From Candidatus Peribacteria bacterium (GTDB taxonomy: Bacteria > Patescibacteriota > Gracilibacteria > Peribacterales > Peribacteraceae), in assembly GCA_009691305.1 (NCBI GenBank), contig SICS01000003.1, positions 1 through 44,012 on the forward strand: 44,012 nt of DNA, read 5' to 3'. Below the pieces are notes generated by a model that saw only the letters and a program-made list of their open reading frames with translations, had not been told where the DNA came from and ran no database searches. This document shows, one piece after another, positions 3,921 through 25,180 of the stretch. A program made the translations under genes and the position numbers. The number at the start of each line of letters is the position of its first letter. Within the stretch, counting starts at the first letter, position 1.

Positions 3921-3950
3921 TGGCTCCCCTGACTGGCTGTTTTCCGAACT
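3921..3950. repeat. att-like junction type A (TGGCTCCCC-N15-CGAAC)
   Basis: TGGCTCCCCTGACTGGCTGTTTTCCGAACT; 28/30 identical to 20073-20102. Confidence 0.85.
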
Positions 3951-4017: not shown

Positions 4018-6000
4018 TTATTCTCTGGTCTTCAGATGAGCCATATGCCTCTGCAAGATCTGCTGGAACGCTGAGGGGAATTCCTCGACACTCGCCGGAA
4101 TAACACTCTCTTGACCGAAGTGGAATTTCACCATTCCGGCGATATCTGGTTCGGGGGTGATAGCCGTGCCTTCCATTGGGGTTTTCTGACGTGCTGCATC
4201 AGCAGCATCTCTTGTCTCCGAGGCTTGCGTGGTGCTATCGGTGATAAAGACCATCAGAGAACCGATGCGTTCGGCTTCGGTACGCATTTGCTGCTTCTTT
4301 TTCACGATGCGAGGCAGGGCCACATTGATCGCATTCGCATCTTCATTATCTCCTCCAAAATCATGCAGCATCGTCATGAGGCGCGATTTCACACGACCAT
4401 CGTACGCTTCGTCGAAACCCTTAATGAGATATTTCTCATCATCACCAATATTCTTGTTGTCACTCGCGAGAATTTCTATGGCCACGCTGTGATCCTTCGA
4501 GCCTTCGCAGGTCTCAATGCAGGATTTCACTGCATTTTCGATGCGTTGACGATCCTGATACATCGAGCCGCTGACATCGATGAGAACTTGCAGAATGAGA
4601 GCAACATTCTCGGGGATTTTCCTTTTACCGAGGGGTTTTTCCTTACCGGTGTTTTTTCGACGGATAAGGTTCATGACACTGAAGCGGATACCCTTTGTGC
4701 CATAGACGTATTGCGGTTCGATAATTTTGGGTACGAACCGTTGGAAAACACGCTTCATTTGGTTTGTACCGGGGATGACTTGTTTTCTATATTCCTCGTA
4801 TTCCTCACGGAGTTTCGGATCTTCAAAACCATCGCGGTTCTTTTTAAGGAGATGATCCGCATCATCGCGCTTCCCTTTTGCATCAGTGTTTTTCTCCGCC
4901 TGATCTTTCTTTCCCTTCGCTTCCTTCTCTAAACGTTTCTGATGCTTCTCAATCATCTTCTGGAGAATTTGCTTCAAATGATCAGGCCATGAGGAAGGGT
5001 CTCGCGGATTGAGAGGCGGATCGCCCTCGGGAATTTTCGGCTGGCCTGTACCTTCCTCCGGCTGGTCTGCATTTGGTTCACCTGTAGATCCCTCTTCCCC
5101 CTCGTCGCCTTCATCTTGGTTTTTCTTCTGGGAAGAAGGTGGAAACTCATCGAGCAATCGTTTCATTGCCGGCCAGAGATGATCGACAATCAGCTTTTCC
5201 ACCTCTGCATTGACCTTCATTGGTGGGAGCGACGCATCGCCGGTAATTTTTGCGATGATTGGTTCAATCTTCTTGTATTCCTCAAGTGCTCGCGGATGGA
5301 GGTCATCGAGACTCCACGGCTTCTCTGTCCCTTTGAGTTCCTTCGCATGCAGTGCCCAGAGTCGTTCAAGCTTCATCATGAATCCCAGCTGTTCTGCGGG
5401 AGACATTTTCCCTTTTGCAATTCCCTGGGCGATATTCGGGATGATCAACTGCCTGTTTTTCTCGAAAAGCTGCAAACGCTGGTTATCGCGCAGCGGCCCT
5501 CCTACCAAGCGTTCCATGCGCGGATCTTCCACAAGATTATCGAGCTGCAGGAGGTGCTTGGGATCGTGGCCATCCCTTTCCGCAAGGCTCCTAAATCGAT
5601 CGCAACGGCTGAAATCCGTCCATTCGGCATGGCCACGCTCATGGGCGATCTCGCCGCGAAGGAAGTCCTTGGATGCTCCGCCTGCCGCGAAGATGAAAGG
5701 AATGCCGATGAGATACGTTTTTTTGCTGGGATCATCAACAATTTCCCCCGCATTCGTTGTTTTCTTTCCCGGCACTTGAGCGCAACAGAACGTATCGAGT
5801 TTCGGATCGGTATAAATTTCGATGCTGCGGTCGGGCGCTTGGGCGGAGCGTTCAAGATCCAACAGGAGCTGATCAACTTGCTCGGCAGTCATGTTCTTCA
5901 TGTTGTCCTTCAATTTCTGCATGAATGCATCCGCGTCGCCGAGGATCGACTCAGGCGGATTGTCGTTGTCAGGCCCGTGTTGCGGTTGATGGATGGACAT
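4018..6000 (-). CDS. vWA-domain protein with N-terminal HExxH metallopeptidase-like domain (CobT/NorD-like MoxR partner)
   Basis: AHERGH then NLVEDPRME, an acidic linker, MIDAS LIDVSGSM, and a later FITDS. Confidence 0.85.
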   Translation of the reverse strand: MSIHQPQHGPDNDNPPESILGDADAFMQKLKDNMKNMTAEQVDQLLLDLERSAQAPDRSIEIYTDPKLDTFCCAQVPGKKTTNAGEIVDDPSKKTYLIGIPFIFAAGGASKDFLRGEIAHERGHAEWTDFSRCDRFRSLAERDGHDPKHLLQLDNLVEDPRMERLVGGPLRDNQRLQLFEKNRQLIIPNIAQGIAKGKMSPAEQLGFMMKLERLWALHAKELKGTEKPWSLDDLHPRALEEYKKIEPIIAKITGDASLPPMKVNAEVEKLIVDHLWPAMKRLLDEFPPSSQKKNQDEGDEGEEGSTGEPNADQPEEGTGQPKIPEGDPPLNPRDPSSWPDHLKQILQKMIEKHQKRLEKEAKGKKDQAEKNTDAKGKRDDADHLLKKNRDGFEDPKLREEYEEYRKQVIPGTNQMKRVFQRFVPKIIEPQYVYGTKGIRFSVMNLIRRKNTGKEKPLGKRKIPENVALILQVLIDVSGSMYQDRQRIENAVKSCIETCEGSKDHSVAIEILASDNKNIGDDEKYLIKGFDEAYDGRVKSRLMTMLHDFGGDNEDANAINVALPRIVKKKQQMRTEAERIGSLMVFITDSTTQASETRDAADAARQKTPMEGTAITPEPDIAGMVKFHFGQESVIPASVEEFPSAFQQILQRHMAHLKTRE

Positions 6001-6005
6001 GAGTA

Positions 6006-6803
6006 TTACGAAGGAATGTTTTTAGGCATGTGATTTTCACGGTATTTCTCGATTCGCGTCTGTACGGCCTCATCGCTCACGCTGTTCACACGATGGAGAA
6101 GCAAGAGCCCACGATGCCGAGCCAGTACGCTTGCGGACTTCACGGACACGAGTGACGGGAGACCGAGGGACAGCGCTCCCTGCACCTGACAAAGCTCCGA
6201 CAAAATATCCGGATCCTCCGTATCCACATTGTCCAAAATGAGGTCACCTTTATGCTGTTTCATGAGTGCAGCATGCGTCTTGGTCAGTCGTGTCACCTTC
6301 GGAAGACTCAACATTTCGCGGTGCCGGCCAAAGATCGACGCTGTTTCGTCAGTGATCTGTTCCAAGGAATCAAAGTTCAGAAATACATTCCTTGCAACTA
6401 GAATATTTGCCGCGCTGGGAGTGAGGCTTTTCAGCTTCGAAAAATTGAGCGAAGGGACATCTTTGTGGTTCACGATCAGAGAAGCAATGTCAGCGGGCAG
6501 AACCGTCAATCCGGAAAAATGTCTGATATTCCCCTGACGAATTTCTTCGAAAATCGAGACATTCTTCCGCATTTCATCCGTTTCCGTCACTGACGCGCAC
6601 GCTGTACGCGCCGCCACGCGCACATCATGCATTTGTTCATCGGTCACGGGCGCATCAGCTGCTACTTGTTTATGAATCACCCCGAGCGATGTAAGAACAT
6701 CCTTGGATGCTTCTGCAGACAACTCCATCCCCGGCGCTTGCGAGCTTCTTGGCTCTTGCGCGTCATCTTTCTCTTCCCGATAGGTGTTAGGGAATGCATT
6801 CAT
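6006..6803 (-). CDS. LRR-like repeat protein, paralog 5
   Basis: Start MNAFPNTYRE 4 nt after the previous stop; about 23-aa repeats such as LNFDSLEQITDETASIFGRHREM. Confidence 0.8.
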   Translation of the reverse strand: MNAFPNTYREEKDDAQEPRSSQAPGMELSAEASKDVLTSLGVIHKQVAADAPVTDEQMHDVRVAARTACASVTETDEMRKNVSIFEEIRQGNIRHFSGLTVLPADIASLIVNHKDVPSLNFSKLKSLTPSAANILVARNVFLNFDSLEQITDETASIFGRHREMLSLPKVTRLTKTHAALMKQHKGDLILDNVDTEDPDILSELCQVQGALSLGLPSLVSVKSASVLARHRGLLLLHRVNSVSDEAVQTRIEKYRENHMPKNIPS

Positions 6804-6807
6804 TGGA

Positions 6808-8040
6808 TTATGAAGAAAAATCAGGGGGAGGAAGGCCGTACTGTTCCATGACTCTGCGATGTTTTTCCCGCGCTGCCTCATCACGAGCTGCATCCGTATA
6901 CGACATATACGTATACTCACTGTCTGAGTGCAGTTCGGTCTGGTCAATCACGCCGTAGTACGGACTATCCACTTCTCTTTCAGCCAAAATTCGCAAGACC
7001 TCATCATCCTTTTCTCGTGTCAGGCGCAAATTACTCATTTCCAATTTTCCAGGCATTTTCGCCAATGCACTGGCGATGTCCGCATGCAGCTCTCGTAAGC
7101 CTTGCAGACTCACGCCATCCGAATGAGTTGCGATAATCTCTGCCTGTTCGATCGTGAGCGATTCGTAGCCAAGCACCAATCGTCCTTGTGTTTTCACCAG
7201 CTCCTGAAGAATTTCCGTTGGCATGTCTTTCCACGTTCCCACATGAAGCCCCCCAGCATGCTTGCTCAGTTCGCGTGCGGCTTCGAGTGACATGTGTTCT
7301 ACGCCAAAAATAACGAGATCCTCCTGATGCTCACCCAGAGCCTTGGCGGCACGAGTGGAATTCAGAGAAGAAATATTGAGCGAAAGAAAATATTTTAATT
7401 GTGCCAATTCTTCCAGCACATCATCCGGAGGATTTTCGAGATTGTAAAACATCAGTCCTCCAGCATGTCTTTTGAGCAATGCCGCCTGCTTTTGGGTCAG
7501 TGTCTTCACTCCCAAACTCAGGCTACTGCCCGTGTGCTGCGCAAATTCCTCCGCAAGGTCATCGGAGAGCTCTTCAAGACTGTAGAGGTCGACCCTGTCG
7601 ATATTGCGAAATTCTTTAGCCGCATCTACCGATAAAGATTTCAGCATAGGCAAATTACATGAGTCGGTATTTTTCTTCGCGATTATTTTTGCGATGTTGG
7701 TCGGGAGGTACGTCAACTGATAGATGCCGTACATATCCTCACCACTTGCGATCTGCTCCCACACTTTTTTGTTATTTTCCAAATCCGGCACATGGGGCAA
7801 TGTGCTGAGAGAAATCTGAGCAGGGCCGACATCCACAATCAGGCCATGTAATGCACCCCGCACTTTTTCCATGTCACTCGCCATTAAGGAGCCATCATGT
7901 GCAATGCCGTGTGCGACACTTTCCATCTTTTCTAGCAAAATCTGCCCTTCGGGTGTTTCGGAGACGGGCGTGCGATTTCCATCCGCGTTTTCGGATTCTT
8001 TTTCGTGTTCGTCCCGATGGATGTTCGGTGTAGGAGGCAT
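6808..8040 (-). CDS. LRR-like repeat protein, paralog 4
   Basis: MPPTPNIHRD start; repeats such as VDLYSLEELSDDLAEEFAQHTGS. Confidence 0.82.
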   Translation of the reverse strand: MPPTPNIHRDEHEKESENADGNRTPVSETPEGQILLEKMESVAHGIAHDGSLMASDMEKVRGALHGLIVDVGPAQISLSTLPHVPDLENNKKVWEQIASGEDMYGIYQLTYLPTNIAKIIAKKNTDSCNLPMLKSLSVDAAKEFRNIDRVDLYSLEELSDDLAEEFAQHTGSSLSLGVKTLTQKQAALLKRHAGGLMFYNLENPPDDVLEELAQLKYFLSLNISSLNSTRAAKALGEHQEDLVIFGVEHMSLEAARELSKHAGGLHVGTWKDMPTEILQELVKTQGRLVLGYESLTIEQAEIIATHSDGVSLQGLRELHADIASALAKMPGKLEMSNLRLTREKDDEVLRILAEREVDSPYYGVIDQTELHSDSEYTYMSYTDAARDEAAREKHRRVMEQYGLPPPDFSS

Positions 8041-8048
8041 GGTAGTGA

Positions 8049-9359
8049 TCAGATATAGGGATGTTTTTGTACTTCTTTTTCTATTGCAGGGGAAAGATAT
8101 GTCCCGAAAACGTGTTGCTTAAAAGCGTGAGCCGCACGGTCGGAAATGGAAGTCAAACCTCGCAGGCCGATGGAATAGTGATGATCCCTCAAGGCCTGAA
8201 TTGTTTCTTGAGAAAGCTCAGGCAGAGCCGGAAGCTTTTCCAGCATTAGGCTTTGTTTGTTCTTGAGGAGAGATCGGAATTGTTTGTCCGAAAGAGACGT
8301 TAGTCCATAAAGAGCGATATCACCGTTATGGTTGGCAATCCAACGAACAGTTTCTTCCGAAAATTCAGGTAAGGTCGTGATCTTACTCAAGGACAACGTA
8401 TCTTTGGGACTATGGAGAAGACTACGAAATTCCGAATCAGAAATAGTCTCCAAACCCATCGAAAGACAGCCCCATTCCCTGTTGGACAGAGCGTTCTCCG
8501 TCTCTTTCGATAGAGCTGGAAGTTTTTTGATGCCATCCAATCGAATAGTGTTGCGCCGCTTGGAAAGCAGCTGCCTGAACTGTTTATCAGAAAGCGAGGA
8601 AATACCATCAAGCGACAAGTGAGCTTCATGATTCTCTAAAGCTCTGAGGACATCGTCAGAAAGTTCGGGGAGAGAATGCAGGCCATCGAGCCCAAGATCC
8701 CCGGTAATACTGAGCAACATTTGCAATTCCTGGCTGGAGATTGAGTTCAGCCCAGTAAGTCTGAGAGAGTCGCGTCTTCCGGAAGACAGAGCTTGTATGT
8801 TTTGTTCCGATAATGGAGGTAAGGATGACAGACCATCCATCTGCAATCCTCTCTTGCCACTGCGAAGAGCGAAGAACTGCTTTGTAGAAATAGATTGGAA
8901 TCCGTTCAGTTCTATATACTTGTGGTTATCTCCCTGTAGAAGTCCTGCAATGGTTTCGTCGGACAATTTCGTAATGAGCGGAAATTTGAGAAAATAATCC
9001 TGATCTTTTGCGAGAGCGATCGCAATCGCCGGCGGAAGAATGGTCAGCTTGCTATGATTTGCGGATTTCCCATCCAAAATTTCCCTCCAAATTTTTCCAT
9101 TTTGTTTCAGCTCTCCGTCTTCGAGAGTAAATGTTCTTCCTTCCACCGTGACTGATGCGCCTGCAATGGCAGATTCCAAGCTCTGAATGTGGGCTTGGTT
9201 CATTGGCGCATCCTGAGAAATATTCCGTTGAACAGATTCCAGAGTAGAATCAACGATTTTCGATGTAGGTGACGTCGATAACTCAACGTGCGCGGACGCG
9301 TTGGGGTCTGGCGTTTCATCTTCTATATTTTCCCGATGGATATTGGAGGTGATAGACAT
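8049..9359 (-). CDS. LRR-like repeat protein, paralog 3
   Basis: MSITSNIHRE start; alternating repeats LxLDGLxSLPxLS and LxLxGLxSIS. Confidence 0.82.
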   Translation of the reverse strand: MSITSNIHRENIEDETPDPNASAHVELSTSPTSKIVDSTLESVQRNISQDAPMNQAHIQSLESAIAGASVTVEGRTFTLEDGELKQNGKIWREILDGKSANHSKLTILPPAIAIALAKDQDYFLKFPLITKLSDETIAGLLQGDNHKYIELNGFQSISTKQFFALRSGKRGLQMDGLSSLPPLSEQNIQALSSGRRDSLRLTGLNSISSQELQMLLSITGDLGLDGLHSLPELSDDVLRALENHEAHLSLDGISSLSDKQFRQLLSKRRNTIRLDGIKKLPALSKETENALSNREWGCLSMGLETISDSEFRSLLHSPKDTLSLSKITTLPEFSEETVRWIANHNGDIALYGLTSLSDKQFRSLLKNKQSLMLEKLPALPELSQETIQALRDHHYSIGLRGLTSISDRAAHAFKQHVFGTYLSPAIEKEVQKHPYI

Positions 9360-9388
9360 TGCAGAAATGCAAATGGTTTCAAATAATC

Positions 9389-10705
9389 TTAGTCTTTTAA
9401 GTCAGCTTCTTGCCGCATTTTTTTGATACGTATGTGTAGGTCAGAGCAACCGCCAATCCTCGCCTTTCCCTTTGCCAAAGCCTGTATTCCCAAATCTGAA
9501 ATAGTACGCAATTCTGAGAAATATACTTCTCCATCATGCCGGGATAGCGACTGAGCTTGTGCGTCGGTGAGAGAACTCACTTTCCCAAGATTCAGTTTTC
9601 CCTTGTGCTTCGAAAATGATTCCGCCTGTGCATCGTTCATACTTTCTAAATACCACAATGACAGATTATCAGAGACCTTGGACAGGGCTTCGGCAGAACG
9701 ATCAGTGAGTTGTGTTACCCCGAGCGTTACTGATTTATTCCCGGTTGCAAGAGAGACGATTCCCGTTTCAGAAATTGAACGTAGACGAATGAAGTCAAGC
9801 TCACCGCCGTAATTTTCCAGAAATTTTGCTTGAGTATTGGAGAGAACAGTAATTCCAAGTTTTAAATGTGTTCCCACATACTTACTCTTACTTTTGGTAT
9901 GTTTCGCCAGCGATGCTAACTGCGCATCTGTGATTTGTTCCAATTCGCCAAAATTGATGTACGACTCTCCATCCTCATACTTGCGGACGAACTCATCTAT
10001 ATCGACGTTGCCAAAGCGAGTGACGTTCGCAAGATTCATCTTCCCCTCATGCTTGAAAAGGTGAGCGAGTGCCCCGTCAGAAAGAGTCTTCAGACCTGCA
10101 ACATTAAGGTAACCTCGATGCTTGCTCAATTCTTTTGCAGCGTCCTCTGAAAGATCCTTCAGACGACAGAGCCAAAGTGCATCGCCAGCATGTCTTGCGA
10201 GTTCTTTTGCAACTTCAGGAGTGATGGACTGCAATTCATTTAAACGAAGTTGTTTTGGGGATCGCGCAAGAATCCGAGCTGTTTCGGGCGTTAGTTTCCG
10301 AAGACCAACTAAGTACACAAAGTGCCCCCTATTGAGGTGTACTATTTTCTCCGCAACAGGCTCTGTTATAAGAGTCATTTTTTCAATCTCCATCGTGTCT
10401 TCGTCAGACAAAACAGCCTTCCATATTCGAATGTTTTCTTTGTGTTCGGGATTAGTTTTCAATTCGGGAAGAGATACTTTTTCCCCTCCGACTACAACCA
10501 TAGTATTTTCAAGTTCTTCACGAAAATGATGAATGTCCTTCCCAAGCACCGGATGATTGTGTTGAATCTTCGCTTCGATGTCTTCAGGTGGCTTTAGAAG
10601 CGACTGAGCGCTCGTCGATGATTCAATCTCCAAAGGAATGCTAGGCGTACTGTTTTCGCCTTGCTGATCGTGTTCGTCCCGATGGATGTTGGGGGGTGTA
10701 CTCAT
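9389..10705 (-). CDS. LRR-like repeat protein, paralog 2
   Basis: MSTPPNIHRD start in ATGA overlap with the upstream gene; repeats such as LRLNELQSITPEVAKELARHAGD. Confidence 0.82.
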   Translation of the reverse strand: MSTPPNIHRDEHDQQGENSTPSIPLEIESSTSAQSLLKPPEDIEAKIQHNHPVLGKDIHHFREELENTMVVVGGEKVSLPELKTNPEHKENIRIWKAVLSDEDTMEIEKMTLITEPVAEKIVHLNRGHFVYLVGLRKLTPETARILARSPKQLRLNELQSITPEVAKELARHAGDALWLCRLKDLSEDAAKELSKHRGYLNVAGLKTLSDGALAHLFKHEGKMNLANVTRFGNVDIDEFVRKYEDGESYINFGELEQITDAQLASLAKHTKSKSKYVGTHLKLGITVLSNTQAKFLENYGGELDFIRLRSISETGIVSLATGNKSVTLGVTQLTDRSAEALSKVSDNLSLWYLESMNDAQAESFSKHKGKLNLGKVSSLTDAQAQSLSRHDGEVYFSELRTISDLGIQALAKGKARIGGCSDLHIRIKKMRQEADLKD

Positions 10706-11925
10706 GGTTTTTCCTGAATAGCGGGACAAAAAACTTTGCCATGGAACTGAATTTTTGCCTTATTCCTCAGAGGATCATTCAGCCACTCCTGCACTTCCGA
10801 CGGGAACGAGGAAAAATCCACATTCACAAAGTACAAATTTGCACCTTCACATTTACAGAGGGCCCTTGCTGCCTCTGGAGTCATTGCTTCCACTGCAGGA
10901 CAAAGTAGATAACCCTTAAATCTATGGAATGCTTTTGCAACTTCAACGTGCATCGCAGCCAAATTCGCTAGATAAAGCTCAACGTTTGGATCCAATGTTG
11001 CAAGATGTGCCGCCGCCTCCGGACTCAGACCGGTAACCTCTGCCAACGCCAAACGGCTTCCTTTGAAATGAGAAATACCACGCGCAGCTTCAGGCGTCAG
11101 AACAGTCAGATTCGATAAGGTCAATAACTTGATGTGTGATCGTCCTATACCTTCCGCTTCATCAGCCGTAAGAGCAGTCAGTCCCAGCATTACATGCCAG
11201 ATTTCGCAATCACTCAATGCTTGTGCTGCTTCCGTAGAGAGTGACTGCACACCGCGAAGATAGAGGTCTTCACCCCTGAATGTTGCCAATGCCTTTGCCG
11301 CAGTGGGACTGAGTTTTTTTAATCCATTGAGACTCAATATTTTTACATCACAGCCAGCCAGCTCCTCGGCTACGCTGTCTGAAATTGACCCGAGATGATC
11401 GAAAGAAATTACGCCTTTAATATTCTTGTTTTGGCGGATTGCTCTTGCGGTTTCGACAGGTAATACATTTACTTTGTCACAATTCAGATCAGGCCCCGGT
11501 AGTTTCGCTGCGACAGCGGGGGGAAGGAACGTAATGTCGCCATCTTCATACGGCCAAACTTTCCCTTCAATCATATATTGCCATTGATCGTTTTCATCGA
11601 AGTCTTGCAACGCAATAGAACCGAGCTGTGCCGTACGAGGCGTGATGATGGGCTCACCACCAGCTGCCCAAGGAACGCTCTTTGGTACTTCCACTCGTGT
11701 TCCCACTTGAACTGGCAAAACTCGCAACGAATCTGATAATTGCGTGAGATCATCATTCTTGATCGTCTTGTCATGCATAACCGCTTGATGCGCTGCGCTC
11801 AATGTTTGCAGGAGAGACGTAAGCTGCGTTCCCTCTGTTATAGGCAACCGGAGCGCATCAGAATTTTCTCCGCTTGCGGCGGGTGCATCTGAATCCCTGT
11901 GAATGAGGGGGCGATTCTGGTTCAT
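10702..11925 (-). CDS. LRR-like repeat protein, paralog 1
   Basis: MNQNRPLIHRD start; repeats such as LSLNGLKKLSPTAAKALATFRGE. Confidence 0.82.
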   Translation of the reverse strand: MNQNRPLIHRDSDAPAASGENSDALRLPITEGTQLTSLLQTLSAAHQAVMHDKTIKNDDLTQLSDSLRVLPVQVGTRVEVPKSVPWAAGGEPIITPRTAQLGSIALQDFDENDQWQYMIEGKVWPYEDGDITFLPPAVAAKLPGPDLNCDKVNVLPVETARAIRQNKNIKGVISFDHLGSISDSVAEELAGCDVKILSLNGLKKLSPTAAKALATFRGEDLYLRGVQSLSTEAAQALSDCEIWHVMLGLTALTADEAEGIGRSHIKLLTLSNLTVLTPEAARGISHFKGSRLALAEVTGLSPEAAAHLATLDPNVELYLANLAAMHVEVAKAFHRFKGYLLCPAVEAMTPEAARALCKCEGANLYFVNVDFSSFPSEVQEWLNDPLRNKAKIQFHGKVFCPAIQEKP

Positions 11926-11934
11926 GGGGAGTCA

Positions 11935-13872
11935 TCAGGCGGCACCGATCTTCTGATCGATCAGATTTTCCAAAGCGTTGTAGACGCTGTCGAGTCCGTC
12001 GATTGGGTTCTTCCGGAAATCATCGAAGACGCTGAGATAGGACTTCCGGACATCGCGCAGTTCTTTGTACCGCTGCACAATCGCAATCGTGTCGCGCATG
12101 CTCATGCCGAGCAGATCGAAGCCACCCTGCCGCTTTTCGTAGTGCTTCCTCCATTCGTCGGCAATTTCCAGAATGTCGCGCAGATCAACGAGAGTTTTTG
12201 TGATGTGTGCCGCAGAATTTCCTTCCATCAGCGGCTGCAACCTTGGATTCGCCTCCAACTCGGTGCGCTTCGCGCCTTGTGTTTTCTCGTTTACAACGCA
12301 GTCCCAGAGCAGCGCGAAGTCTTGATTGGTGAGTCCGCTGAACTCATTCATCGTCTCGTACAGAACGAGAACTTCATCGCATGCATAATCACGGAGCGCG
12401 TTGTCCTGTGTTTCTTTCTCTTGGAGGAGCGCGGGAGACCATCCCTCCTTGCGAGCTTGCAATTCACCTTTCCGAAGCCCGGGGTATTCCATCACCATCG
12501 ATTGTCCCCTCGTGCGGCTAAGGAGCGCCTGTCCGAGGGATCCTGCTGAGCCATACGTTGCGGGGTTACCGGCAATGATGATGAGCACATCCTCCGCAAC
12601 GGGGATGTAAATGCCGTCAAAATTGAGCGCGCGGTTACTGTCGCCAAGTCCGTGCAGGATCGCCTGCACTTCGGGCTTGAGGGCGTTGACTTCGTCGATC
12701 ATCACGACCGCACCCGGTGTCTGAATGCCTTCGGCAAGAGCAGTGAGGAAGCGTTGCGTTCCTTCTTTGGAATCGAATTCGTAGTGTGTAACCATCTCCG
12801 CCGCTTCCATGCCGCGTCCACAGGGGAACCAGAAGTATGGCCTTTCCGTCTTTGCGGCGACGTACTCTGCCGCTTCGTTTTTTCCTGTTCCTGCCTCTCC
12901 GATCATCAGCGTCAGTCCTTTCTTCAGATCACGCTGTGTGTCCAAGCACCGGGCCAACTCCCCGAGATTACGCTCGAAGGAAGGGATTTCTTTGATGCCC
13001 TCCTTCGCTTTTGGTACGCGCTCACGGCCATCGCCGCGCGTGCGGTTCAGTACCAGAATCTGGCTCAGCATCTCGGCGGCACGTTGCGTCAAGGCATCGG
13101 CATCGATGGATTCTTTCTTGAAACCTCGCGTTGTCTTAGCCACTTTCTCCAGTGCCGCGTTCAGGCGCTCGCGGAGAAGGTTGCTGCTGTTTTCTCCATT
13201 CTTTCTGCCGCTGCTCGCCTGAGGAAAACTTTTTCGGAAGAGGGAAAGACCAGACTCACGCAGGGCGTTCTCCCCCTGCAAGATTTCGAGCATCTGCTTA
13301 CGCGCCTCCTTCCGCACGTCCGGACTCCCCCGCATGCGCCGTTCCAGATCGGTATATTCGCTGAGGAGCACCTTTATCACTTTCCACTCGTTCACCGTGA
13401 ACGAATTATTGATCGGTTCCAGTGTGCGTTCCTGCTCGCCCACGCTTTTCCCGGGCTTCAGCCGCCGGTTCCGGCGGGCGTAGGCGAAGGTCACTTCATT
13501 CCCGTATTGTTTCTCTTCAACTTCCCAGAGAGGATTGTCCGTCGCTCCTTTCCAGATCAATTTCTCATGCCCTTTGAGCCAGATTGGAAGCGGCTCATCT
13601 TCCTTCTTTTCGGGCTCTTCTTGCTTGCGGATGATGGGCGGCTCGTACGTTTGCAGGGGCTGTATGAGCATGGCAAATACTGCATCGAGGGTCTTTCCCG
13701 AGAGATCAACATCTCCCATCTTTGCTCCCGCCGGGAACACGACATCGATCCCGAGATCATTCCGCAAATCCGTGCAATATTGTTTCCTCAGAGCCATCAG
13801 AGCGTCCTTCACTTCTTCTGGCGTGAGTTCACGGTCGGCAGACTCTGGAAGTACCTGTTTTTCTGTTGCCAT
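11935..13872 (-). CDS. MoxR/CbbQ-like AAA+ ATPase with long N-terminal extension
   Basis: Walker A GEAGTGKN, Walker B VMIDE, sensor-1 AGNP..Y and ALLSR arginine finger. Likely start is MATEKQ at 13872. Confidence 0.88.
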   Translation of the reverse strand: MATEKQVLPESADRELTPEEVKDALMALRKQYCTDLRNDLGIDVVFPAGAKMGDVDLSGKTLDAVFAMLIQPLQTYEPPIIRKQEEPEKKEDEPLPIWLKGHEKLIWKGATDNPLWEVEEKQYGNEVTFAYARRNRRLKPGKSVGEQERTLEPINNSFTVNEWKVIKVLLSEYTDLERRMRGSPDVRKEARKQMLEILQGENALRESGLSLFRKSFPQASSGRKNGENSSNLLRERLNAALEKVAKTTRGFKKESIDADALTQRAAEMLSQILVLNRTRGDGRERVPKAKEGIKEIPSFERNLGELARCLDTQRDLKKGLTLMIGEAGTGKNEAAEYVAAKTERPYFWFPCGRGMEAAEMVTHYEFDSKEGTQRFLTALAEGIQTPGAVVMIDEVNALKPEVQAILHGLGDSNRALNFDGIYIPVAEDVLIIIAGNPATYGSAGSLGQALLSRTRGQSMVMEYPGLRKGELQARKEGWSPALLQEKETQDNALRDYACDEVLVLYETMNEFSGLTNQDFALLWDCVVNEKTQGAKRTELEANPRLQPLMEGNSAAHITKTLVDLRDILEIADEWRKHYEKRQGGFDLLGMSMRDTIAIVQRYKELRDVRKSYLSVFDDFRKNPIDGLDSVYNALENLIDQKIGAA

Positions 13873-14002: not shown

Positions 14003-14902
14003 TTACTCCCGGTCCAAGGTTACATCCAAAGCAGCTGAAAGTGGTGCAGGTCTGCCTAGTCGAACAGCCTGAATTCGCTGAAGTTCATGGAGTGTTTGCA
14101 AGAGAATTCGCTGGAGGTGAGCATCGTAACGTTGCAGCTTTTCAAGTTGGTCTAAAGGGGGAACCATCTTCGAATACAAATCTGCACGCTGAACTTCTTT
14201 CTCATGAATTTCCTGAATTGCCCCAGCGGCTGTAAAGAATGTAAAAGCACCTTTGGCAGATTCCAGCGCCACATTCGTCAATACTTTCACATCTTCATCC
14301 GACAATGGCTTTGTGTCTCTATTTCTAAAAGCGTAATCAACAGCGCCAATGTGTTCGGTCTTTATAAATCCCTGTCTTGTTCCAACCTCATTTTCGAAAT
14401 TTTTCCTCAGAATTTCAGGCAGTGGCATTCCTTCGGTTTCGATGTGCTTAATCACGCATTCCATCGCTGCAGCCATAATTTCACATCCATGTCTGCTACG
14501 GAGACGCTGAAAGAACGTATGCTCATCATCTACTCGCGCCCTTCCAAGCGTCTCCATTTGATCGATACTGTATTGCAAGTAGTGTGGTTCGATTTGTTTA
14601 CTTACCATCCCCGTCTCGGCAACGTGACAACGTCGTAATCTCCAGAATGTCGCGAAGAGACGATCAACCAAAAGTGTCTCCATGATTCCTAATGGCTGCA
14701 TCTCCATGAAGAATAGATCTCGAAATTCCTCAAATGCTTTCCGATCGCCTATTTCCCCGCTCATGGAAATATAGAGATGTTTGCTCAGGATGCCATGCTT
14801 GAAAGCGTTCATTTTTGAGACTTCTTTGCCTTGGGTCGTTTTTGGACCCTGACTATTCTCCGCATTCTTCCGGTTTGCCTGAATTTGTTTCTCGGTAGCC
14901 AT
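14003..14902 (-). CDS. Mobile-element-associated hypothetical protein
   Basis: N-terminal ANRKNA..SQGPKT..GK..SKMNA.KHG motif that I recognise from prophage/island genes; C-terminal LQRYDAHL.R. Confidence 0.75.
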   Translation of the reverse strand: MATEKQIQANRKNAENSQGPKTTQGKEVSKMNAFKHGILSKHLYISMSGEIGDRKAFEEFRDLFFMEMQPLGIMETLLVDRLFATFWRLRRCHVAETGMVSKQIEPHYLQYSIDQMETLGRARVDDEHTFFQRLRSRHGCEIMAAAMECVIKHIETEGMPLPEILRKNFENEVGTRQGFIKTEHIGAVDYAFRNRDTKPLSDEDVKVLTNVALESAKGAFTFFTAAGAIQEIHEKEVQRADLYSKMVPPLDQLEKLQRYDAHLQRILLQTLHELQRIQAVRLGRPAPLSAALDVTLDRE

Positions 14903-15672
14903 TAGAAAGGAAGAGCGGAAGAAGATCCCTGCTTCAAAAGAGCGTCATTACCGTCAGTACAGTCATTTTTGGCTTCTAGCGGCCACTCATTTGCTAACGG
15001 TATTGATGACTGCATACCAAATACTTCTCTGGCAGTATCAACACTTAAGGCGTCATGCGAAGAGTTGCTCGCATCGATGGGAAGTGTAGGTGTGACGCTA
15101 GTGACGATACTTTGCGGGGTTTTCTCAACCTGGATCTTCGAGCCTTCACTATCGCGATAAAAGCGCAGAAGCATGCCTGTCTCTTCCAAGTCGCTTTTTA
15201 CTTCCTTGAGCCGCCTCGTGAGCACCTGTGGACCCTTCGGCCATTCTTTTGCTTTAAGATCGATCCGTTCCTCAGTAGCCACATCAACCAGCATACCGAG
15301 TAAAGTAGACATTTTCCCTTCCCACGTCCCCCGGCTGCTCATAAAAATCTGCAAGGCACTGGCGATTGGATGCTCTTGTAGTACGACTCGATGTTGTTCG
15401 CCAATGTTCTCGTAATAGGCCTCCAGAAAGGCTTCCTTGCCATACCCAAGCGCTTCAGCGATGGCGCAGCCCCACAGGGCGAAGTCGGCCATCCGGGGCA
15501 TCTCCTGAAGCTGTAGAGAAGGCAGGATCGCCATTGCCTTGGAGAGCGTATTGAAGACTCCGCCGAGAATAAACGGCAAGTCGCGATCGAACTCGTCCCA
15601 AACGGCCTGCTCTGTCCGTCGTTTGCTTTTCGGAATCTTCTCGAACTCCAGCAGAATACTGCGTTCCAGCGC
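14902..15672 (-). pseudogene. 5'-truncated primase/helicase-type replication ATPase remnant
   Basis: LERSILLEF...ILGG....L...PRMADFALW resembles the C-terminal half of mobile-element replication ATPases. No Walker A is present and the upstream part of the frame overlaps tyrA. Confidence 0.6.
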
Positions 15673-15721
15673 CCACAACCAACCGCCGATGTGAAGTGAT
15701 CGACGGTTGTGAGCGTGCGAA

Positions 15722-16900
15722 TTATTGTTGGATGTCTGTCTCTGCGAGGAGAACATCAATTGCATCAAGGTCTGATGCCAATCGTGAGATATCCACCAGT
15801 GCTTTATCCTTACGACCAAGCTCGAATTCCATACCATTTTTGCTCGGTAGAGAATCAATCGCATTCAGATCGATGCCATGGTGAGCGAGGATCGCGCAGA
15901 TGTTTTCGAGAAGGCCAATGTGGTCCTTGCGTGCTGTGAGGTGGAGAGATTTTTTGCGGATGTTCCCCAATCGAACGATTATGGTGTTCGTTTTTGCTCT
16001 CATCCGTGTGCGCCATATCTTCTGTGGATCCAGTCTATCGCGAGCATCTTCGATAAATGCGGGAAGTTTTCGTTCTTCTTTCGGCCGATCTTTATCGTGC
16101 TGTGCCAGCTCCAGTATGCGCTGCATGGATACGATAACTTGCTCAAGTTCGGATTTGCCTTCCTTCGAAGAAGCCATATTGGCTATGAGGCTTGCCTGCA
16201 AATGGGCGTCAAGTGTCATGCCTCGACCGACGGAGAGCATGAAGAGTTCGGAGTTTGGCGAGCACAATCGATCCAAGTCATCAACCGTGTGGCCATCGCT
16301 CAGGCCACTCCCTATGGCCACGCAGCCTGCGACTTGCAAAAAGTGAGGCATTCCTTGAATCGGTCTCATCAATCGGTCATGCACTTCAGCTTGCATCCAG
16401 TGAATTGTCATTTCTTGACTGCGGAAAAATGCTTCGCCGATCATGTCGGCTTCTTTTGATCTCTCACTGACCGGACAAATGATGCCGTTCTGTCCGCGCA
16501 GGGAAGGGGGATCCGGCGGCACACCTGTCATCGGATGAATGGACCCGAACAATGCCGTTCCATCGTTGCTATCTATTTCTTGCACTAGGTTGATAAAGCC
16601 TTCTTTCGATGATCCGATGTCGATCACAATTTGGTTTGGTCGTAGTTTCGCGCGCATCTCGAGGATGATTCCAGGGATGGCATCGAGCGGAGCGGAGAGA
16701 AATATGATGTCTGCACGCTCGGTAAGTTCATCGAGCGGCACATGAGGGAAATTCGGTTCGGTTTTTGCTCGGACGGGATCCGACTGCAGCATCGGATGAA
16801 GAGAATGAAGCGATACTGTTTGCACCAAATGCTTGCCCCACTTGCCGACGCCGACAACGCCAACGGTTCGCTTGCCGATAATGTTTGATAGTGATTCCAT
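15722..16900 (-). CDS. tyrA: Prephenate dehydrogenase with C-terminal ACT domain
   Basis: GVGKWG Rossmann motif, DIGSSK, HPMTG, HD..M..IQ..PH; ACT-like DHIGLLENIC...GIDLNAIDS. Confidence 0.85.
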   Translation of the reverse strand: MESLSNIIGKRTVGVVGVGKWGKHLVQTVSLHSLHPMLQSDPVRAKTEPNFPHVPLDELTERADIIFLSAPLDAIPGIILEMRAKLRPNQIVIDIGSSKEGFINLVQEIDSNDGTALFGSIHPMTGVPPDPPSLRGQNGIICPVSERSKEADMIGEAFFRSQEMTIHWMQAEVHDRLMRPIQGMPHFLQVAGCVAIGSGLSDGHTVDDLDRLCSPNSELFMLSVGRGMTLDAHLQASLIANMASSKEGKSELEQVIVSMQRILELAQHDKDRPKEERKLPAFIEDARDRLDPQKIWRTRMRAKTNTIIVRLGNIRKKSLHLTARKDHIGLLENICAILAHHGIDLNAIDSLPSKNGMEFELGRKDKALVDISRLASDLDAIDVLLAETDIQQ

Positions 16901-17027
16901 AATTGAGAAAAGAAAAAGAAATACAAGAAAGGAAAATTACGCATCGATAGCGGTACGCACTCGCATCGCAGATGAGCTCGTAGTAGGTGGAACGGCCGAT
17001 CATGAAGGGGAATATATGCATACGTAC

Positions 17028-17052
17028 AAAAAACCCCGCGGATGCGAGGGCT
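17028..17052 (-). terminator. Attenuator intrinsic terminator upstream of tyrA
   Basis: Minus strand reads AGCCCTCGC-ATCC-GCGGGG-TTTTTT. Confidence 0.75.
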
Positions 17053-17079
17053 GAAATAATCGTGGTCAGATACAGCAGC

Positions 17080-17139
17080 TCACATCCGTGTGGAGCGGGT
17101 GTAGTAAGAAGAGATAATGATACAACAGGACTTTTTCAT
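17080..17139 (-). promoter_or_regulatory. Leader peptide MKKSCCIIISSYYTRSTRM (putative Tyr attenuator)
   Basis: 19-codon ORF with tandem TAC TAC. CGGATGTGAG can pair with CTCGCATCCG of the terminator as an antiterminator. Confidence 0.72.
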
Positions 17140-17148
17140 GATAGGGTA

Positions 17149-17176
17149 ATTTTACATTTTATAAGCTTAATGTCAA
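17149..17176 (-). promoter_or_regulatory. Sigma70 promoter for leader-tyrA
   Basis: TTGACA-16 nt-TAAAAT, ending 9 nt before the leader ATG. Confidence 0.6.
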
Positions 17177-17315
17177 GGATGGCTCGACGTGGTTCAAGCT
17201 ATTCGAATTAGCTACGACTTCGTTTCGAATGCTATTCGAATGTAACAGCAGGGCACTATCAACAATACGAAAGGACGCCAGCACAGAGTGCTGACGTCCC
17301 CTGCTGCAGGTTTCC

Positions 17316-17747
17316 CTACAGCTCGTAGTTCTTCTTGACCGCAACGACGTTCTGCACCCAGGCGTCGGCCTCGTTCGGCGTGCCATTCAGATCGTTATAG
17401 CACACCATGGACGGCTCCTTGGCGGTGTATTCGATTTCGCCGTCAGCCGTCCTCAACTTCTTGACGTTGCCGGGCTGGAGGATGTTTTGGTCATCCACCC
17501 AGATCGGCAGCTTGTCGTAGAGGCCTGGCTTGGAGCCGGGCATCCAGCCGATGGGAGCCGTTTTGTCGGCGTTCGGCTGAACGAGGTGGCTGATCTCCGT
17601 ATCCGACGATGTCTTCAGAAAGGCCCCGTTGGGTGCCTGCTGGAGATTGTCAGCGGAGTTTCCCCACTCTGACCGCTTGTCGATCGTGACTGGGCTGGGG
17701 CAGAAGAAGAACCGAACGTCGCGCTGCTTGGACAAAAGCTTTCGCAT
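17316..17747 (-). CDS. Hypothetical protein
   Basis: 143-aa ORF with AGGAG Shine-Dalgarno, biased codon use and a consensus promoter upstream. Confidence 0.75.
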   Translation of the reverse strand: MRKLLSKQRDVRFFFCPSPVTIDKRSEWGNSADNLQQAPNGAFLKTSSDTEISHLVQPNADKTAPIGWMPGSKPGLYDKLPIWVDDQNILQPGNVKKLRTADGEIEYTAKEPSMVCYNDLNGTPNEADAWVQNVVAVKKNYEL

Positions 17748-17842: not shown

Positions 17843-17878
17843 TGGCTCCCCATCCTGCGCCTTCTGCGAACGGATTGG
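17843..17878. repeat. att-like junction type B
   Basis: TGGCTCCCCATCCTGCGCCTTCTGCGAACGGATTGG; one mismatch versus 21593-21628. Confidence 0.88.
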
Positions 17879-18085: not shown

Positions 18086-19168
18086 TTATCCAGTAGGCAA
18101 CTCTGTTTCCGTATTGGCTGATGTTTCACCGAGCACTTTGAAGCTATTATAGAATTTCACGAACTGCGAGTCATCCACTGCGCCGTTGCTGATAGCGTAA
18201 ATGGAATCTGATGTTTCAATGTACACGACTTTGCTAATCCAATCCGCATACTGCTTTGTTGTCACTGTGACGAGCAATGCGTCGTGGCCATCCACCTGAA
18301 TGGTTTTTCGTGACTCGGCTCTGTCAGCAAATTGGTCGCCCATACCTTGTATGACAGTTTCAAGGTTGGTGCTGGATTTTTTATAGACACCGATACCCCA
18401 AATCAGACCACCTGCTTTGGACTCTTCTGTACCAAATCCAACGCCTGTACTGTCCCCATAGTCATCCTCACTTGTAATCCAATTGCTTGGATAGAGCACC
18501 GAAAAATGCAGAGAATTGCTTGTATACGTTTTCCATGTGTCGCTCTTTGCGGTAGCTAATTCCTGATATGTTGCAGAGGGTTTAGTTTCAATGTGAGCAC
18601 GTAGACGATAAATTATCTCTGCCATCTCGCCTCTGGTGATAAGTTGGTCAAACGAGTGAACGGATGTGGGAATAGCATGTCTCTCGCCCAGTTCAACAAT
18701 GAACGGCGCGTACCAAGGTGAATCTATTGCAGGCTGATCAAACCCAAACGACCTCATGATGATTTTTGAAGCCTCTGCGAAATTGATTGTATTGTTCGGC
18801 TTGAATGTGCCGTCGGGATAGCCGTCAATGAGGTGCGAGAAGTGCGCAGAAATGACGTATGGGAAGAACCAATCTCTATCAATGTTCACGTCAGGAAATG
18901 TCATAGTTACGCCCATCGGTGTGTCAGTGGGCAGTCCTTGTGCGCCGACAATGATTTTTACGAACTCTGCTCGGTTGATGGTGTTGTTCGGCTTATACGT
19001 TCCATCAGGATACCCAGACACAATTCTTTCCTGTTGGGCGTAGACGATAGCGTCGTAGTTCGCATGGTTTGAGACTACATCAGGGAAACTAGCAAAAACC
19101 GTTCCTTGTAGCGCAAAAAGACCGACAGCCAACAGACTTATATTAGTTACAGCTTTCATAGTAATCAT
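18086..19168 (-). CDS. S-layer homology (SLH) domain protein with C-terminal PsbP-like domain
   Basis: Signal peptide; GYPDGTYKPNNTINRAE twice and ITRGE; WKTY...FSVLYPSNW. Confidence 0.85.
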   Translation of the reverse strand: MITMKAVTNISLLAVGLFALQGTVFASFPDVVSNHANYDAIVYAQQERIVSGYPDGTYKPNNTINRAEFVKIIVGAQGLPTDTPMGVTMTFPDVNIDRDWFFPYVISAHFSHLIDGYPDGTFKPNNTINFAEASKIIMRSFGFDQPAIDSPWYAPFIVELGERHAIPTSVHSFDQLITRGEMAEIIYRLRAHIETKPSATYQELATAKSDTWKTYTSNSLHFSVLYPSNWITSEDDYGDSTGVGFGTEESKAGGLIWGIGVYKKSSTNLETVIQGMGDQFADRAESRKTIQVDGHDALLVTVTTKQYADWISKVVYIETSDSIYAISNGAVDDSQFVKFYNSFKVLGETSANTETELPTG

Positions 19169-19834: not shown

Positions 19835-20081
19835 GGTAGCATTACCGCTGATAAGTACGACAATTTGATAGAGGAATATAAGGCGCATAGGCCGCGTTTT
19901 TGGAAGAATTACAAGGTCACGCGATGCCGAGCTTTCACGCGTTCGCAACCCGACCAAATGAACCAACTGCTGCGCTTCGTGCTTGCGAACGGCAAAGTGG
20001 AAGGCGAAAAGCTCATCTACGAGCTGAAAAGTCCGTACTCGGGTATCGCACAGTGTGTTAAAAACTAAAGTATGGCTCCCC
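19835..20081 (+). pseudogene. Large serine recombinase C-terminal remnant (internal deletion and frameshift)
   Basis: GSITADKYDNLI...NQLLRFVLANGKVEGEKLIYELKSPYSGIAQCVK, homologous to 22363-22671. An extra A lies just before the WLP core. Confidence 0.75.
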
Positions 20082-20102
20082 CGGCTGGCTGTTTTCCGAA
20101 CT
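20073..20102. repeat. att-like junction type A
   Basis: TGGCTCCCCCGGCTGGCTGTTTTCCGAACT. Confidence 0.88.
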
Positions 20103-21592: not shown

Positions 21593-21628
21593 TGGCTCCC
21601 CATTCTGCGCCTTCTGCGAACGGATTGG
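21593..21628. repeat. att-like junction type B
   Basis: TGGCTCCCCATTCTGCGCCTTCTGCGAACGGATTGG. Confidence 0.88.
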
Positions 21629-22362: not shown

Positions 22363-22671
22363 AGTATTACCCACGATGAGTACGACAAACTGATTGTGGA
22401 TACGAAGACACGGGAAGAACAACTACACGATGAAATGCGGTCACATAGCAAGGCCGACGAAACGTTCCTCATATCGTGTTCCTACTTGCTGGAACTGCTT
22501 CAAAGGGCATCCGACCTTTTTGAGCGTTCGCAACCTGCCCAAAAGAACCAACTTCTGCGTTTCGTACTTGCGAACGCAAAGGTAGAAGGCGAAAAGCTAG
22601 TCTGGGACTTGAAAAGTCCGTTTTCTGGTATTGCCCAGTGTGTCAAAACGAAAGAATGGCTCCCCCGGTAG
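22363..22671 (+). pseudogene. Large serine recombinase C-terminal remnant reading into the tRNA 3' end
   Basis: SITHDEYD...LLELLQRASDLFE...KNQLLRFVLAN...GEKL...LKSPF...WLP, where WLP is encoded by the antisense of the tRNA end. Confidence 0.8.
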
Positions 22672-22731
22672 GATTCGAACCTACGACCGTCTCGTTAACA
22701 GCGAGCTGCTCTACCACTGAGCTACAGGGGA
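22657..22731 (-). tRNA. tRNA-Asn(GTT)
   Basis: TCCCCTGTAGCTCAGTGGTAGAGC...CTGTTAA...GTAGGTTCGAATCCTACCGGGGGAGCCA; 75 nt with encoded CCA. Confidence 0.97.
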
Positions 22732-23755: not shown

Positions 23756-24487
23756 TCACTTTTTCCTGCGAGCCGACGGCCGCTTTTTCTTCTTTTTTGC
23801 CGCGGACTTTCGGGCAGTGTGGGGCATGGTGCATGCCTGGCAGAAGCCCGGATGCCCGGGGTGCGGGTCGGTGTCGGTGATCAGGTAGCGACGGATCCGC
23901 GGCGTGCAGATGAGCACCATTGCCAGCATCACGACCAGGCAGGCGAAGAAGCCGATGCCCCATCCCGCCAACTGGGCGATGATCGGGTTGTCTGTGCCGA
24001 ATGTCGGTTCGGGGACCGGCACAATGACGAGTCCCCGCATCCCGGCCAGGAACGCGCTCATGGCGACCCAGAAGTAGTAGTCGACGGGGAACGCCCCGAA
24101 CCAGTGCGTGTACCAGGGGATCTTTCCTGGGAAAAATGATTGCCACCCGAAGTGCGGGTTGAAGACGAACCACAGAAAGTCCTCCAGCAGCATCGTTGTA
24201 CAGAGCACGAAGAGGATCGTCAGTTCCATCGGCCACGACCATCCGGCCAACAGGAGCGGCAGATGCAGTAGCACGATCATGTGGAGGTTGAAGTAGATGT
24301 GGTATCCCGTCACTTCCTTCCCATTCATCAGTTTGCGGAGCCACTTGGGCGAAAACCGCCACGATGGCAGGCAGCTCGCCCAGCCGTTGCCTCCTTCTAT
24401 CTGGATCTCCATCAGTGCCGTCACCGTCGAGAGCAGCAGGATGAACGGCCAGAGTATCAAAAAGAATTGCGGGGTCTCGTAGAACAT
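23756..24487 (-). CDS. Integral membrane protein
   Basis: Multiple TM segments with EIQIEG..GWA..LP, TGYH and EDFLWF..NP motifs. Confidence 0.8.
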   Translation of the reverse strand: MFYETPQFFLILWPFILLLSTVTALMEIQIEGGNGWASCLPSWRFSPKWLRKLMNGKEVTGYHIYFNLHMIVLLHLPLLLAGWSWPMELTILFVLCTTMLLEDFLWFVFNPHFGWQSFFPGKIPWYTHWFGAFPVDYYFWVAMSAFLAGMRGLVIVPVPEPTFGTDNPIIAQLAGWGIGFFACLVVMLAMVLICTPRIRRYLITDTDPHPGHPGFCQACTMPHTARKSAAKKKKKRPSARRKK

Positions 24488-24619
24488 AGATTACCGGGCA
24501 CGCTGACAGTTCTGGCGCGAAACAGCAATGGCGGACTGCTGCTGATCTAGTCTGTTCATAATTCTGAGGAGCGCGCTTTCTGCGCGCGTACGCAGGCAGA
24601 AAGCCTGCTCCACTTTTCT

Positions 24620-25021: not shown

Positions 25022-25044
25022 GTGATGACAGTCTAGCATCACTG

Positions 25045-25107: not shown

Positions 25108-25180
25108 AAAAGTTTTCTCCCCATCTTCTTGCCCGTGGTGTTTTCCCCTTCTATTCTTTCCCCCCTTCACTTCATTCCGT

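Follow-up and report, generated by a model that had tools for sequence, protein, structure and literature searches.

An AAA+ ATPase and an HExxH/vWA protein genomically linked to partner proteins with a common N-terminal module and exchangeable heads in Patescibacteria

Results

The window analysed here is a stretch of 44,012 nucleotides from a freshwater Candidatus Peribacteria bacterium (SICS01000003.1 of assembly GCA_009691305.1); it corresponds to contig C22 of a 1.07-Mb genome that is 98.8% complete, and the names of homologs point to Peribacteria/Patescibacteria. Seven co-oriented genes on its minus strand form an operon encoding an AAA+ ATPase, five proteins with leucine-rich repeat (LRR)-like repeats (P1 to P5) and a protein that combines an HExxH motif with a vWA domain (for von Willebrand factor type A). 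This arrangement had been noticed earlier from the letters and open reading frames (ORFs) alone, as a candidate variable-receptor system (hereafter the original prediction). We found that the genes for the ATPase, the vWA protein and proteins starting with the N-terminal module of P1 to P5 (N-module) travel together across loci, and that the same N-module is followed by LRR, WD40 or helical repeats. Tentatively, we propose that an invariant core of AAA+ ATPase and zincin-vWA protein, of the type known from phage CobS/CobT-like pairs, acts on interchangeable binder proteins via this common N-terminal handle.

The linkage was assessed at 29 loci with a full-length ortholog of the ATPase, seven from genomes and 22 from metagenomes, which were mapped with custom hidden Markov models; an ORF was counted as an N-module ORF if it matched at E<=1e-3 and lay in the same gene block. 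At least one N-module ORF was present in the ATPase block at 24 of the 29 loci. Three of the five others are contigs of 2.7-3.6 kb, one holds gene fragments only, and one carries genes for N-module plus WD40 proteins at a laxer threshold. Both the ATPase and the vWA gene were found in the block at 16 of the 29 loci, as well as in the window. At nine of these 16 loci, as in the window, the partner genes lie between the two; five loci have them ahead of the ATPase or behind the vWA gene, and at one, where the pair is convergent, they occupy both arms. Their copy number ranges from one to at least eight per locus, and the genome-derived loci have no flanking genes in common, either with each other or with the window. 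Accordingly, the original prediction that ATPase and vWA protein bracket the array is true of the window, but elsewhere the arrays stand before, between or after the pair or are dispersed. The prediction had been made dependent on a neighbourhood search for AAA/vWA orthologs without LRR genes; since the linkage is conserved and the copy number varies, with an N-module gene kept at those 24 loci, the search leaves it standing.

The same picture was obtained from the phyletic distribution. Among 401 genomes of the class, ATPase and vWA protein occur in the same six, and strong N-module matches were found in five of these six. The sole N-module match outside the six (genome G026) covers the last 40 profile positions with an E-value of 1.5e-6 and is a repeat protein matched over its repeats. 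In G117, the sixth genome, the ATPase/vWA pair is surrounded by four tandem paralogs, whose N-terminal module is peculiar to them and whose LRRs are of a different type. At the level of the phylum, the ATPase was detected in four of 401 genomes. Of two congeneric genomes of another class (G522 and G561), the one of 1.3 Mb contains 29 N-module matches and the one of 1.2 Mb contains 19, with one ATPase match in each. At syntenic sites of these two genomes, the copy number differs, with two versus five copies beside the ATPase and two versus three beside hrcA-grpE-dnaK. We conclude that ATPase, vWA protein and N-module genes travel together.

The part behind the N-module is exchangeable. The N-termini of the partners at loci L039, L040 and L041 matched the N-module in HHalign with a probability of 90.8% (E 1.2e-6, 65 columns), and the head that follows is a run of seven WD40 repeats (Pfam, 5.1e-72), a set of helical repeats or a globular domain that could be assigned to no family. 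The N-modules of the L040 partners are 68-86% identical to each other, and their C-terminal parts differ. Thus, the array of LRR paralogs that had been predicted is present in the window, but other loci carry WD40, helical-repeat or unassigned globular heads on the same N-module.

Partners also diverge faster than the core. Between the two congeneric genomes, the ATPases are 80%, the vWA proteins 81% and the housekeeping flanks 72-91% identical, compared to 45-54% for the best partner pairs; between loci L014 and L015, the values are 80% and 80% for the core and 57% and 43% for the partners. In a tree of 40 N-modules, the partners cluster by genome, with 17 label changes, which is the minimum possible, against a mean of 31.6 after label shuffling (none of 200 shuffles was as low as 17). 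No match to the reverse transcriptase family RVT_1 was found in the 98.8%-complete genome, and the operon contains no long near-identical repeat pairs. Diversification by a diversity-generating retroelement was rejected because the genome lacks a reverse transcriptase; the partners would thus diversify by duplication, divergence and head exchange. The fast divergence, the turnover in copy number and the swapping of heads point to a putative arms-race role against phage or host proteins rather than to housekeeping.

In the window, P2 to P5 are 21-25% identical to P1 and align with it over a common block (N..IW..G..LT.LP..IA), and all matches of P4 in the genome lie within the operon locus. Judged by their sequences, the five middle proteins are true paralogs. 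They all start with the N-module of about 120 residues, which consists of an acidic disordered leader and a block in which two helices, a hairpin and finally cap helices lead up to the sequence LT.LP..IA. The first residues of the leader are conserved within the genome, and the first 30 residues of the paralogs hold 4-7 D/E versus 1-3 K/R. The repeats that follow have a period of 23-24 residues, with a 50-residue double unit in P3, and many members of the family end in a basic C-terminal helix with an [IV]xxQIxK[FY]K-like motif. An AlphaFold2 (AF2) model of P4 from 35 sequences (predicted local distance difference test (pLDDT) 84.8, predicted template modelling score 0.77) has a disordered acidic leader at residues 4-22, two helices and a hairpin at 30-77, cap helices, and about ten strand-helix units at ~124-353, most of them with a pLDDT above 90. 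Foldseek against the PDB returned LRR proteins throughout the matches listed, with FBXL2 (6o60_C, 4.7e-5) at the top, and FBXL17. Common block, acidic leader and modelled solenoid agree with the LRR-like paralogs, acidic leaders and shared domain of the original prediction. None of the five paralogs matched an LRR model of Pfam or NCBIfam at E<=0.1 or reached the cut-off of any model, and P4 has no PHROG family; their NCBIfam matches were weak and included no LRR or defence model.

With a profile that spans the N-module and two repeats, 5256 representatives were matched at E<=1e-3. The top-ranking ones are mostly long proteins covered in their repeat part only, and the eight that were tested all lack a Pfam LRR. 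The 24-residue repeat is therefore a widespread LRR variant missed by Pfam, and the N-module, not the repeat, is by sequence the feature specific to the paralog family. Proteins of the repeat family carry only the source names 'hypothetical protein' or 'serine/threonine protein kinase'. The same LRR variant was seen in two very long proteins, P0067 and P0069, neither of which has a Pfam LRR match; the fusion partner is a Ser/Thr kinase domain in one of them and a ribosomal L9 C-terminal domain in the other. At the DNA level, the first codons of P4 plus 3 nt upstream (7987-8043) are 77% identical to those of P2 (10652-10708) over 57 nt, compared to an overall protein identity of ~27%, which suggests that the 5' ends were kept or homogenised.

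These data bear on a looser relationship, in which the LRR family would consist of independent, fast-evolving adhesion or host-interaction proteins of epibionts that are merely inherited together with an AAA/vWA pair serving another client. Most N-module copies in G522 and G561 indeed lie between housekeeping genes and away from the pair, the repeat is widespread outside this context, and the LRR expansions of 12-24 per genome in clade T1 of oral Saccharibacteria were read as adhesins in the account given there (PMC7739484). We nevertheless regard this explanation as improbable, since the strong N-module matches among the genomes of the class are confined to pair-bearing ones (5/5), adjacency is kept across loci that have no other flanking genes in common, the handle is kept while the head changes its fold, and no signal peptide or membrane anchor was found.

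The second core component, the HExxH/vWA protein, gave an AF2 model with a pLDDT of 84.2. By Foldseek against the PDB, its vWA domain is closest to the vWA domain of NorD in the NorQD complex (9qhd_G, 1.1e-7) and to the metal ion-dependent adhesion site (MIDAS) domain of Rea1 (1.4e-7). The Pfam model VWA scored 22.2 bits, which is under its cut-off of 23.8; at E<=1, VWA_2 was found in 22 and VWA in 15 of 27 family members, and CobT_C matched 10 of the 27 weakly. Across these 27 sequences, H120, E121 and H124 (the HExxH motif), E158, D159 and E163, as well as D475, S477 and S479 (the DxSxS of the MIDAS) are invariant. In the model, the HExxH motif sits on a helix (111-127) behind a three-stranded sheet (strands 58-101), and E158, D159 and E163 sit on a second helix (147-166). 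The HExxH domain reached template modelling scores of only 0.41-0.48 against an M48 cluster, and its look-alikes are mostly phage proteins, which we take as a lead only. Against the predicted viral structures of BFVD, the whole protein gave full-length matches to phage CobT-like/VWFA proteins from 8.9e-13. Sequence searches of the PDB with the protein and its profile returned nothing relevant, it has no PHROG family, and its 48 relatives are all unnamed and without Pfam domains. The predicted vWA partner with an HExxH motif is thus borne out by the fold and by the invariant residues; going by sequence and model, a zincin-like (HExxH) peptidase domain that appears to be intact is coupled in it to a vWA domain with a MIDAS. 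At two loci, the vWA gene is split in two ORFs (L013 11911-13854, which equals G561:C4, and L041 7915-9884), possibly by a frameshift or an assembly error.

Residues 322-453 of the ATPase match Pfam AAA_5 (E 5.8e-17; 62.4 bits versus a cut-off of 22). A profile of 21 orthologs found CbbQ (5c3c, 4e-12) and NorQ (9qh4, 1.7e-11) as the nearest solved structures, and CobS or CobT chains were not among the PDB sequence matches. Among the PHROGs, the ATPase matched phrog_249 (CobS-like, 'porphyrin biosynthesis') at 6.9e-10, and its core is 26-34% identical to phage genes annotated as 'porphyrin biosynthesis' or AAA. About 60 full-length relatives were found at 40-59% identity. An Atlas search with the N-terminal extension yielded nothing but CobS_N clusters, whose values of 0.75-0.77 are too low to count as a lead. 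The MoxR assignment of the original prediction therefore stands, and the sequence places the ATPase in the CbbQ/NorQ/CobS branch of this class, with a family-specific N-terminal extension.

Genomic setting of the operon

The features of the operon and its surroundings are listed in Table 1. The intergenic gaps calculated from the ORF coordinates are 9, -4, 29, 8, 4 and 5 nt, exactly as predicted for seven co-oriented genes. Scans for promoter-like and terminator-like sites gave no useful signal, with 6 versus 9.3 expected and 17 versus 10.9 expected, respectively; no promoter-like site lay 5' of the first operon gene, and no terminator-like site followed the last one. Contigs from four DNA runs of three freshwater studies, one of which may be the source, are almost all at least 99% alike, without joints; one minor variant contig of run X3 ends at 10981-11059, and run X5 leaves 7411-9014 uncovered. 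In PADLOC-DB 2.0, only BrxF (0.023) and IetA (0.032) came up, both on the P-loop region of the ATPase, and the other six proteins had no match.

Table 1 Features of the operon and of the adjoining DNA in the window.
Feature	Position	Strand	Description
AAA+ ATPase gene	11935-13872	-	645 aa from ATG; N-terminal extension of ~300 aa, AAA_5 core 322-453, C-terminal region of ~190 aa
Paralog P1	10702-11925	-	407 aa; N-module with an insertion of ~20 aa, then LRR-like repeats; N-domain profile E 9.4e-25
Paralog P2	9389-10705	-	438 aa; N-module and LRR-like repeats; 4-nt overlap of its start with the end of P1; N-domain profile E 5.0e-36
Paralog P3	8049-9359	-	436 aa; N-module and repeats as ~50-aa double units; N-domain profile E 3.4e-35
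Paralog P4	6808-8040	-	410 aa; modelled member; acidic leader, N-module, ~10 strand-helix units
Paralog P5	6006-6803	-	265 aa, shortest; N-module and few repeats; N-domain profile E 2.9e-25
HExxH/vWA gene	4018-6000	-	660 aa; zincin-like domain ~20-290, disordered linker 290-323, long helix 340-390, vWA domain with MIDAS 466-656
29-nt motif GTTCG-N15-GGGGAGCCA, copy 1	3921-3949	-	69 nt past the stop codon of the HExxH/vWA gene; possible segment boundary
29-nt motif, copy 2	17843-17871	-	brackets, with copy 1, a 13.9-kb segment of operon plus ORFs 14003-17747
29-nt motif, copy 3	20073-20101	-	tRNA 3'-end-like
29-nt motif, copy 4	21593-21621	-	tRNA 3'-end-like
tRNA-Asn	22657-22731		motif copies all lie between the operon end and this gene

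The 29-nt motif of Table 1 resembles the T-arm plus acceptor end of a tRNA and occurs four times in the whole genome, each time in the window. All copies follow a minus-strand gene, 45-215 nt past its 3' end, and fall within 18.7 kb adjoining the tRNA-Asn gene. In addition, 125 nt by the third copy (19939-20063) are 82% identical to the DNA by the tRNA gene (22524-22648). At face value, this arrangement resembles cassettes placed in series or serial integrations. No recombinase was found near the motif copies and no integrase in the window; the only Phage_integrase match of the genome is on another contig. The distribution of the ATPase is patchy. It was not found in nine genomes of the same genus and 15 further genomes of the same family, and its identity is 57-58% both to same-family copies and to those from another class. 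Of the genes around the operon, two (15722-16900 and 1028-2011) had no match in the nine same-genus genomes at E<=1e-10, so that no empty insertion site could be identified. The mobile cassette of the original prediction is consistent with the patchy distribution and the repeats at both ends of the segment; the missing integrase, the lack of viral relatives and the conserved chromosomal synteny of the ATPase/vWA pair in one genus (G522 and G561) speak against it, and we consider this reading weak. The G+C content is 45-54% at 1-22000, where the operon lies, and 54-60% at 24000-36000, where the gene for alanyl-tRNA synthetase and other housekeeping genes are located.

Alternatively, the locus could be the remnant of a phage or mobile element, with the CobS/CobT-like pair serving virion assembly as a chaperone, a role that has been proposed for jumbo phages, and with the repeat proteins as its structural clients. 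The full-length structural match of the vWA protein to phage CobT-like/VWFA proteins, the matches of the ATPase to phage AAA genes and phrog_249, and the tRNA-end-like repeats bracketing the segment would fit such an origin. It is, however, highly improbable, because no relatives were found on viral contigs, tblastn detected no match of the vWA protein among 50,697 phage records, P4 belongs to no PHROG family, the window holds no integrase and the pair is kept in chromosomal synteny. An identity of the locus as a prophage was rejected for the first two of these reasons.

Discussion

In the reading that we tentatively favour, the MoxR-class ATPase and the zincin-vWA adaptor would together form an invariant core, and the third component would be variable soluble cytoplasmic proteins made of the common handle and a variable protein-binding scaffold of LRR, WD40 or helical repeats; in the window, this scaffold is predicted to be a CC-type LRR solenoid with 23-24 residues per repeat. 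By analogy with NorQ/NorD, CbbQ/CbbO and the Rea1-MIDAS system, the MIDAS site of the vWA domain or the peptidase cleft may capture the shared acidic handle. ATP hydrolysis by a hexamer of the ATPase would then remodel the bound binder, and the peptidase would probably clip the leader. The outcome would be a matured or released binder with a target specificity of its own. In NorQD, a finger of the NorD vWA domain is described to enter the pore of NorQ, and ATP hydrolysis to remodel the adaptor (PMC13036017).

Several observations weigh against this proposal. The Walker A motif of the ATPase reads GEAGTGKN, with N in place of the S/T of GxxxxGK[ST], and across the 21 orthologs, G325, E326, G328, G330 and K331 never vary and N332 hardly does; with a motif ending in GKN and not GK[ST], ATPase competence is not assured. 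On the peptidase side, the HExxH domain matched none of the curated peptidase families of Pfam, and its third metal ligand, E158, is no more than a candidate. The N-terminal module of the G117 partners is not significantly related to the handle (HHalign probability 1.2%). In G522 and G561, the N-module copies form small arrays between housekeeping genes, most of them far from the ATPase/vWA pair, and adjacency to the core is thus not obligatory. Finally, no hydrophobic segment, signal-like N-terminus or membrane segment was detected in any of the seven operon proteins, so that a role at the surface of a host would need an unknown export route.

Rather than being processed, the N-module proteins could stay docked on the core as exchangeable substrate receptors, similar to F-box or NLR proteins, with their LRR, WD40 or helical heads recruiting phage or host targets for ATP-driven remodelling or proteolysis. 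The set of heads is the same as in F-box and STAND/NLR receptors, P4 is matched best in structure by FBXL2 and FBXL17, two LRR proteins of the F-box type, one core stands alongside up to 29 partners, and the invariant peptidase domain could be the effector. The similarity to F-box proteins (FBXL/FBXW) and to CC-type or GALA-like LRRs extends to the constant N-terminal module in front of an LRR or WD40 head and to the strand-helix repeat of 23-24 residues. Unlike these, however, the operon has no F-box domain, ubiquitin machinery or Pfam LRR match, which makes this an analogy of design and not a homology. Docking of this kind seems possible, though rather unlikely to us: Pfam revealed neither an F-box nor another known docking domain, the MoxR/vWA pairs characterised so far serve a defined client and, as presented in the cited reports, have no exchangeable receptors (PMC13036017, PMC9976466), and the conserved, disordered and acidic N-terminus would suit a processed leader better than a stable docking surface.

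The core resembles NorQ/NorD and CbbQ/CbbO in its AAA_5 core by sequence, its vWA domain by fold (NorD), the adjacency of the two genes and the invariant DxSxS of the MIDAS. It differs from them in that the ATPase is ~300 residues longer at the N-terminus and ~190 at the C-terminus and that the adaptor carries the HExxH domain. Moreover, the neighbours here are a variable protein family, whereas NorQ/NorD and CbbQ/CbbO are encoded beside a metalloenzyme, nitric oxide reductase or Rubisco. A CobS-like ATPase with a CobT-like vWA partner is also found in aerobic cobaltochelatase (CobNST). The operon proteins match none of the CobS/CobT models of NCBIfam, and CobN (PF02514) had no match in the 98.8%-complete genome, in a search whose control detected it in five of 14 known genomes. 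A role as cobaltochelatase was rejected, as the absence of CobN excludes it.

For a MoxR pair of phages, a vWA co-chaperone with an N-terminal metallopeptidase is described, and a chaperone function coupled to proteolytic processing was proposed (Iyer et al. 2021, PMC7824862). The operon has the same two-gene architecture as this CobS/CobT-like pair, a full-length structural match of the vWA protein and a match of the ATPase to phrog_249. In contrast to the phage pair, as the authors portray it, it is chromosomal in Patescibacteria, and its vWA protein has no phage sequence match. Arrays of N-module binders are tied to the pair here and are not mentioned in the sections of that paper dealing with the phage pair.

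A further similarity is to the MoxR-vWA ternary conflict systems, for which it was proposed that the vWA protein captures a peptide and the MoxR ATPase releases it in remodelled form (Kaur et al. 2020, PMC7159879). Like the VMAP, iSTAND and FtsH types described in the main text of that study, the operon combines MoxR and vWA proteins with a rapidly diversifying third component, and protein-binding repeats and peptidases occur in both. Unlike in those types, the third component is a separate family with an N-terminal handle of its own, and the peptidase belongs to the vWA protein. In this protein, the vWA domain extends as far as the C-terminus without an effector fused behind it, as opposed to the C-terminal fusions described there, and the hosts are ultra-small and unicellular, while the hosts of the published systems are given as multicellular. 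None of the FtsH, STAND, trypsin and caspase families was detected by Pfam in the seven operon proteins; VMAP domains were not searched for. The triad was not found described in the literature on MoxR/vWA conflict systems and metallopeptidases and on MoxR and LRR proteins of Patescibacteria (Candidate Phyla Radiation), Peregrinibacteria included, although the supplements to Kaur et al. 2020 might contain related architectures. We regard the triad as a variant of the MoxR-vWA ternary theme without a described function.

A bolder version would be a single AAA+/vWA/metalloprotease engine that is programmed, through one handle, by a rapidly evolving and recombining repertoire of LRR, WD40 and helical receptors against phage or host proteins. 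This seems doubtful to us; if true, it would be a bacterial counterpart of the F-box/NLR logic, a modular recognition system not known from prokaryotes. To our knowledge, MoxR/vWA machines are widespread and only few have a known client. Here, likely partners are encoded beside such a machine and come with a recognisable handle and obvious binding domains, which makes the client question directly testable. As far as we know, the host and phage interactions of Patescibacteria are largely unknown as well. With up to 29 matches in one 1.3-Mb genome, the N-module family makes a strong candidate for a repertoire central to the interactions or the immunity of these bacteria, and the N-module profile may serve as a search key for cataloguing handle-plus-variable-head proteins across uncultured lineages.

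Further features of the window

Directly upstream of the operon, two minus-strand ORFs (14003-14902 and 14902-15864; 299 and 320 aa) have no Pfam or PHROG family; the start of the latter overlaps the end of a prephenate-dehydrogenase-like gene. The minus-strand gene at 18086-19168 encodes two S-layer-homology domains and a PsbP_2 domain, an odd mix for an ultra-small bacterium. On the plus strand, a tmRNA gene was identified at 36623-37041 (Rfam, 79.1 bits), for which ARAGORN predicted an unusually long tag peptide of 31 residues.

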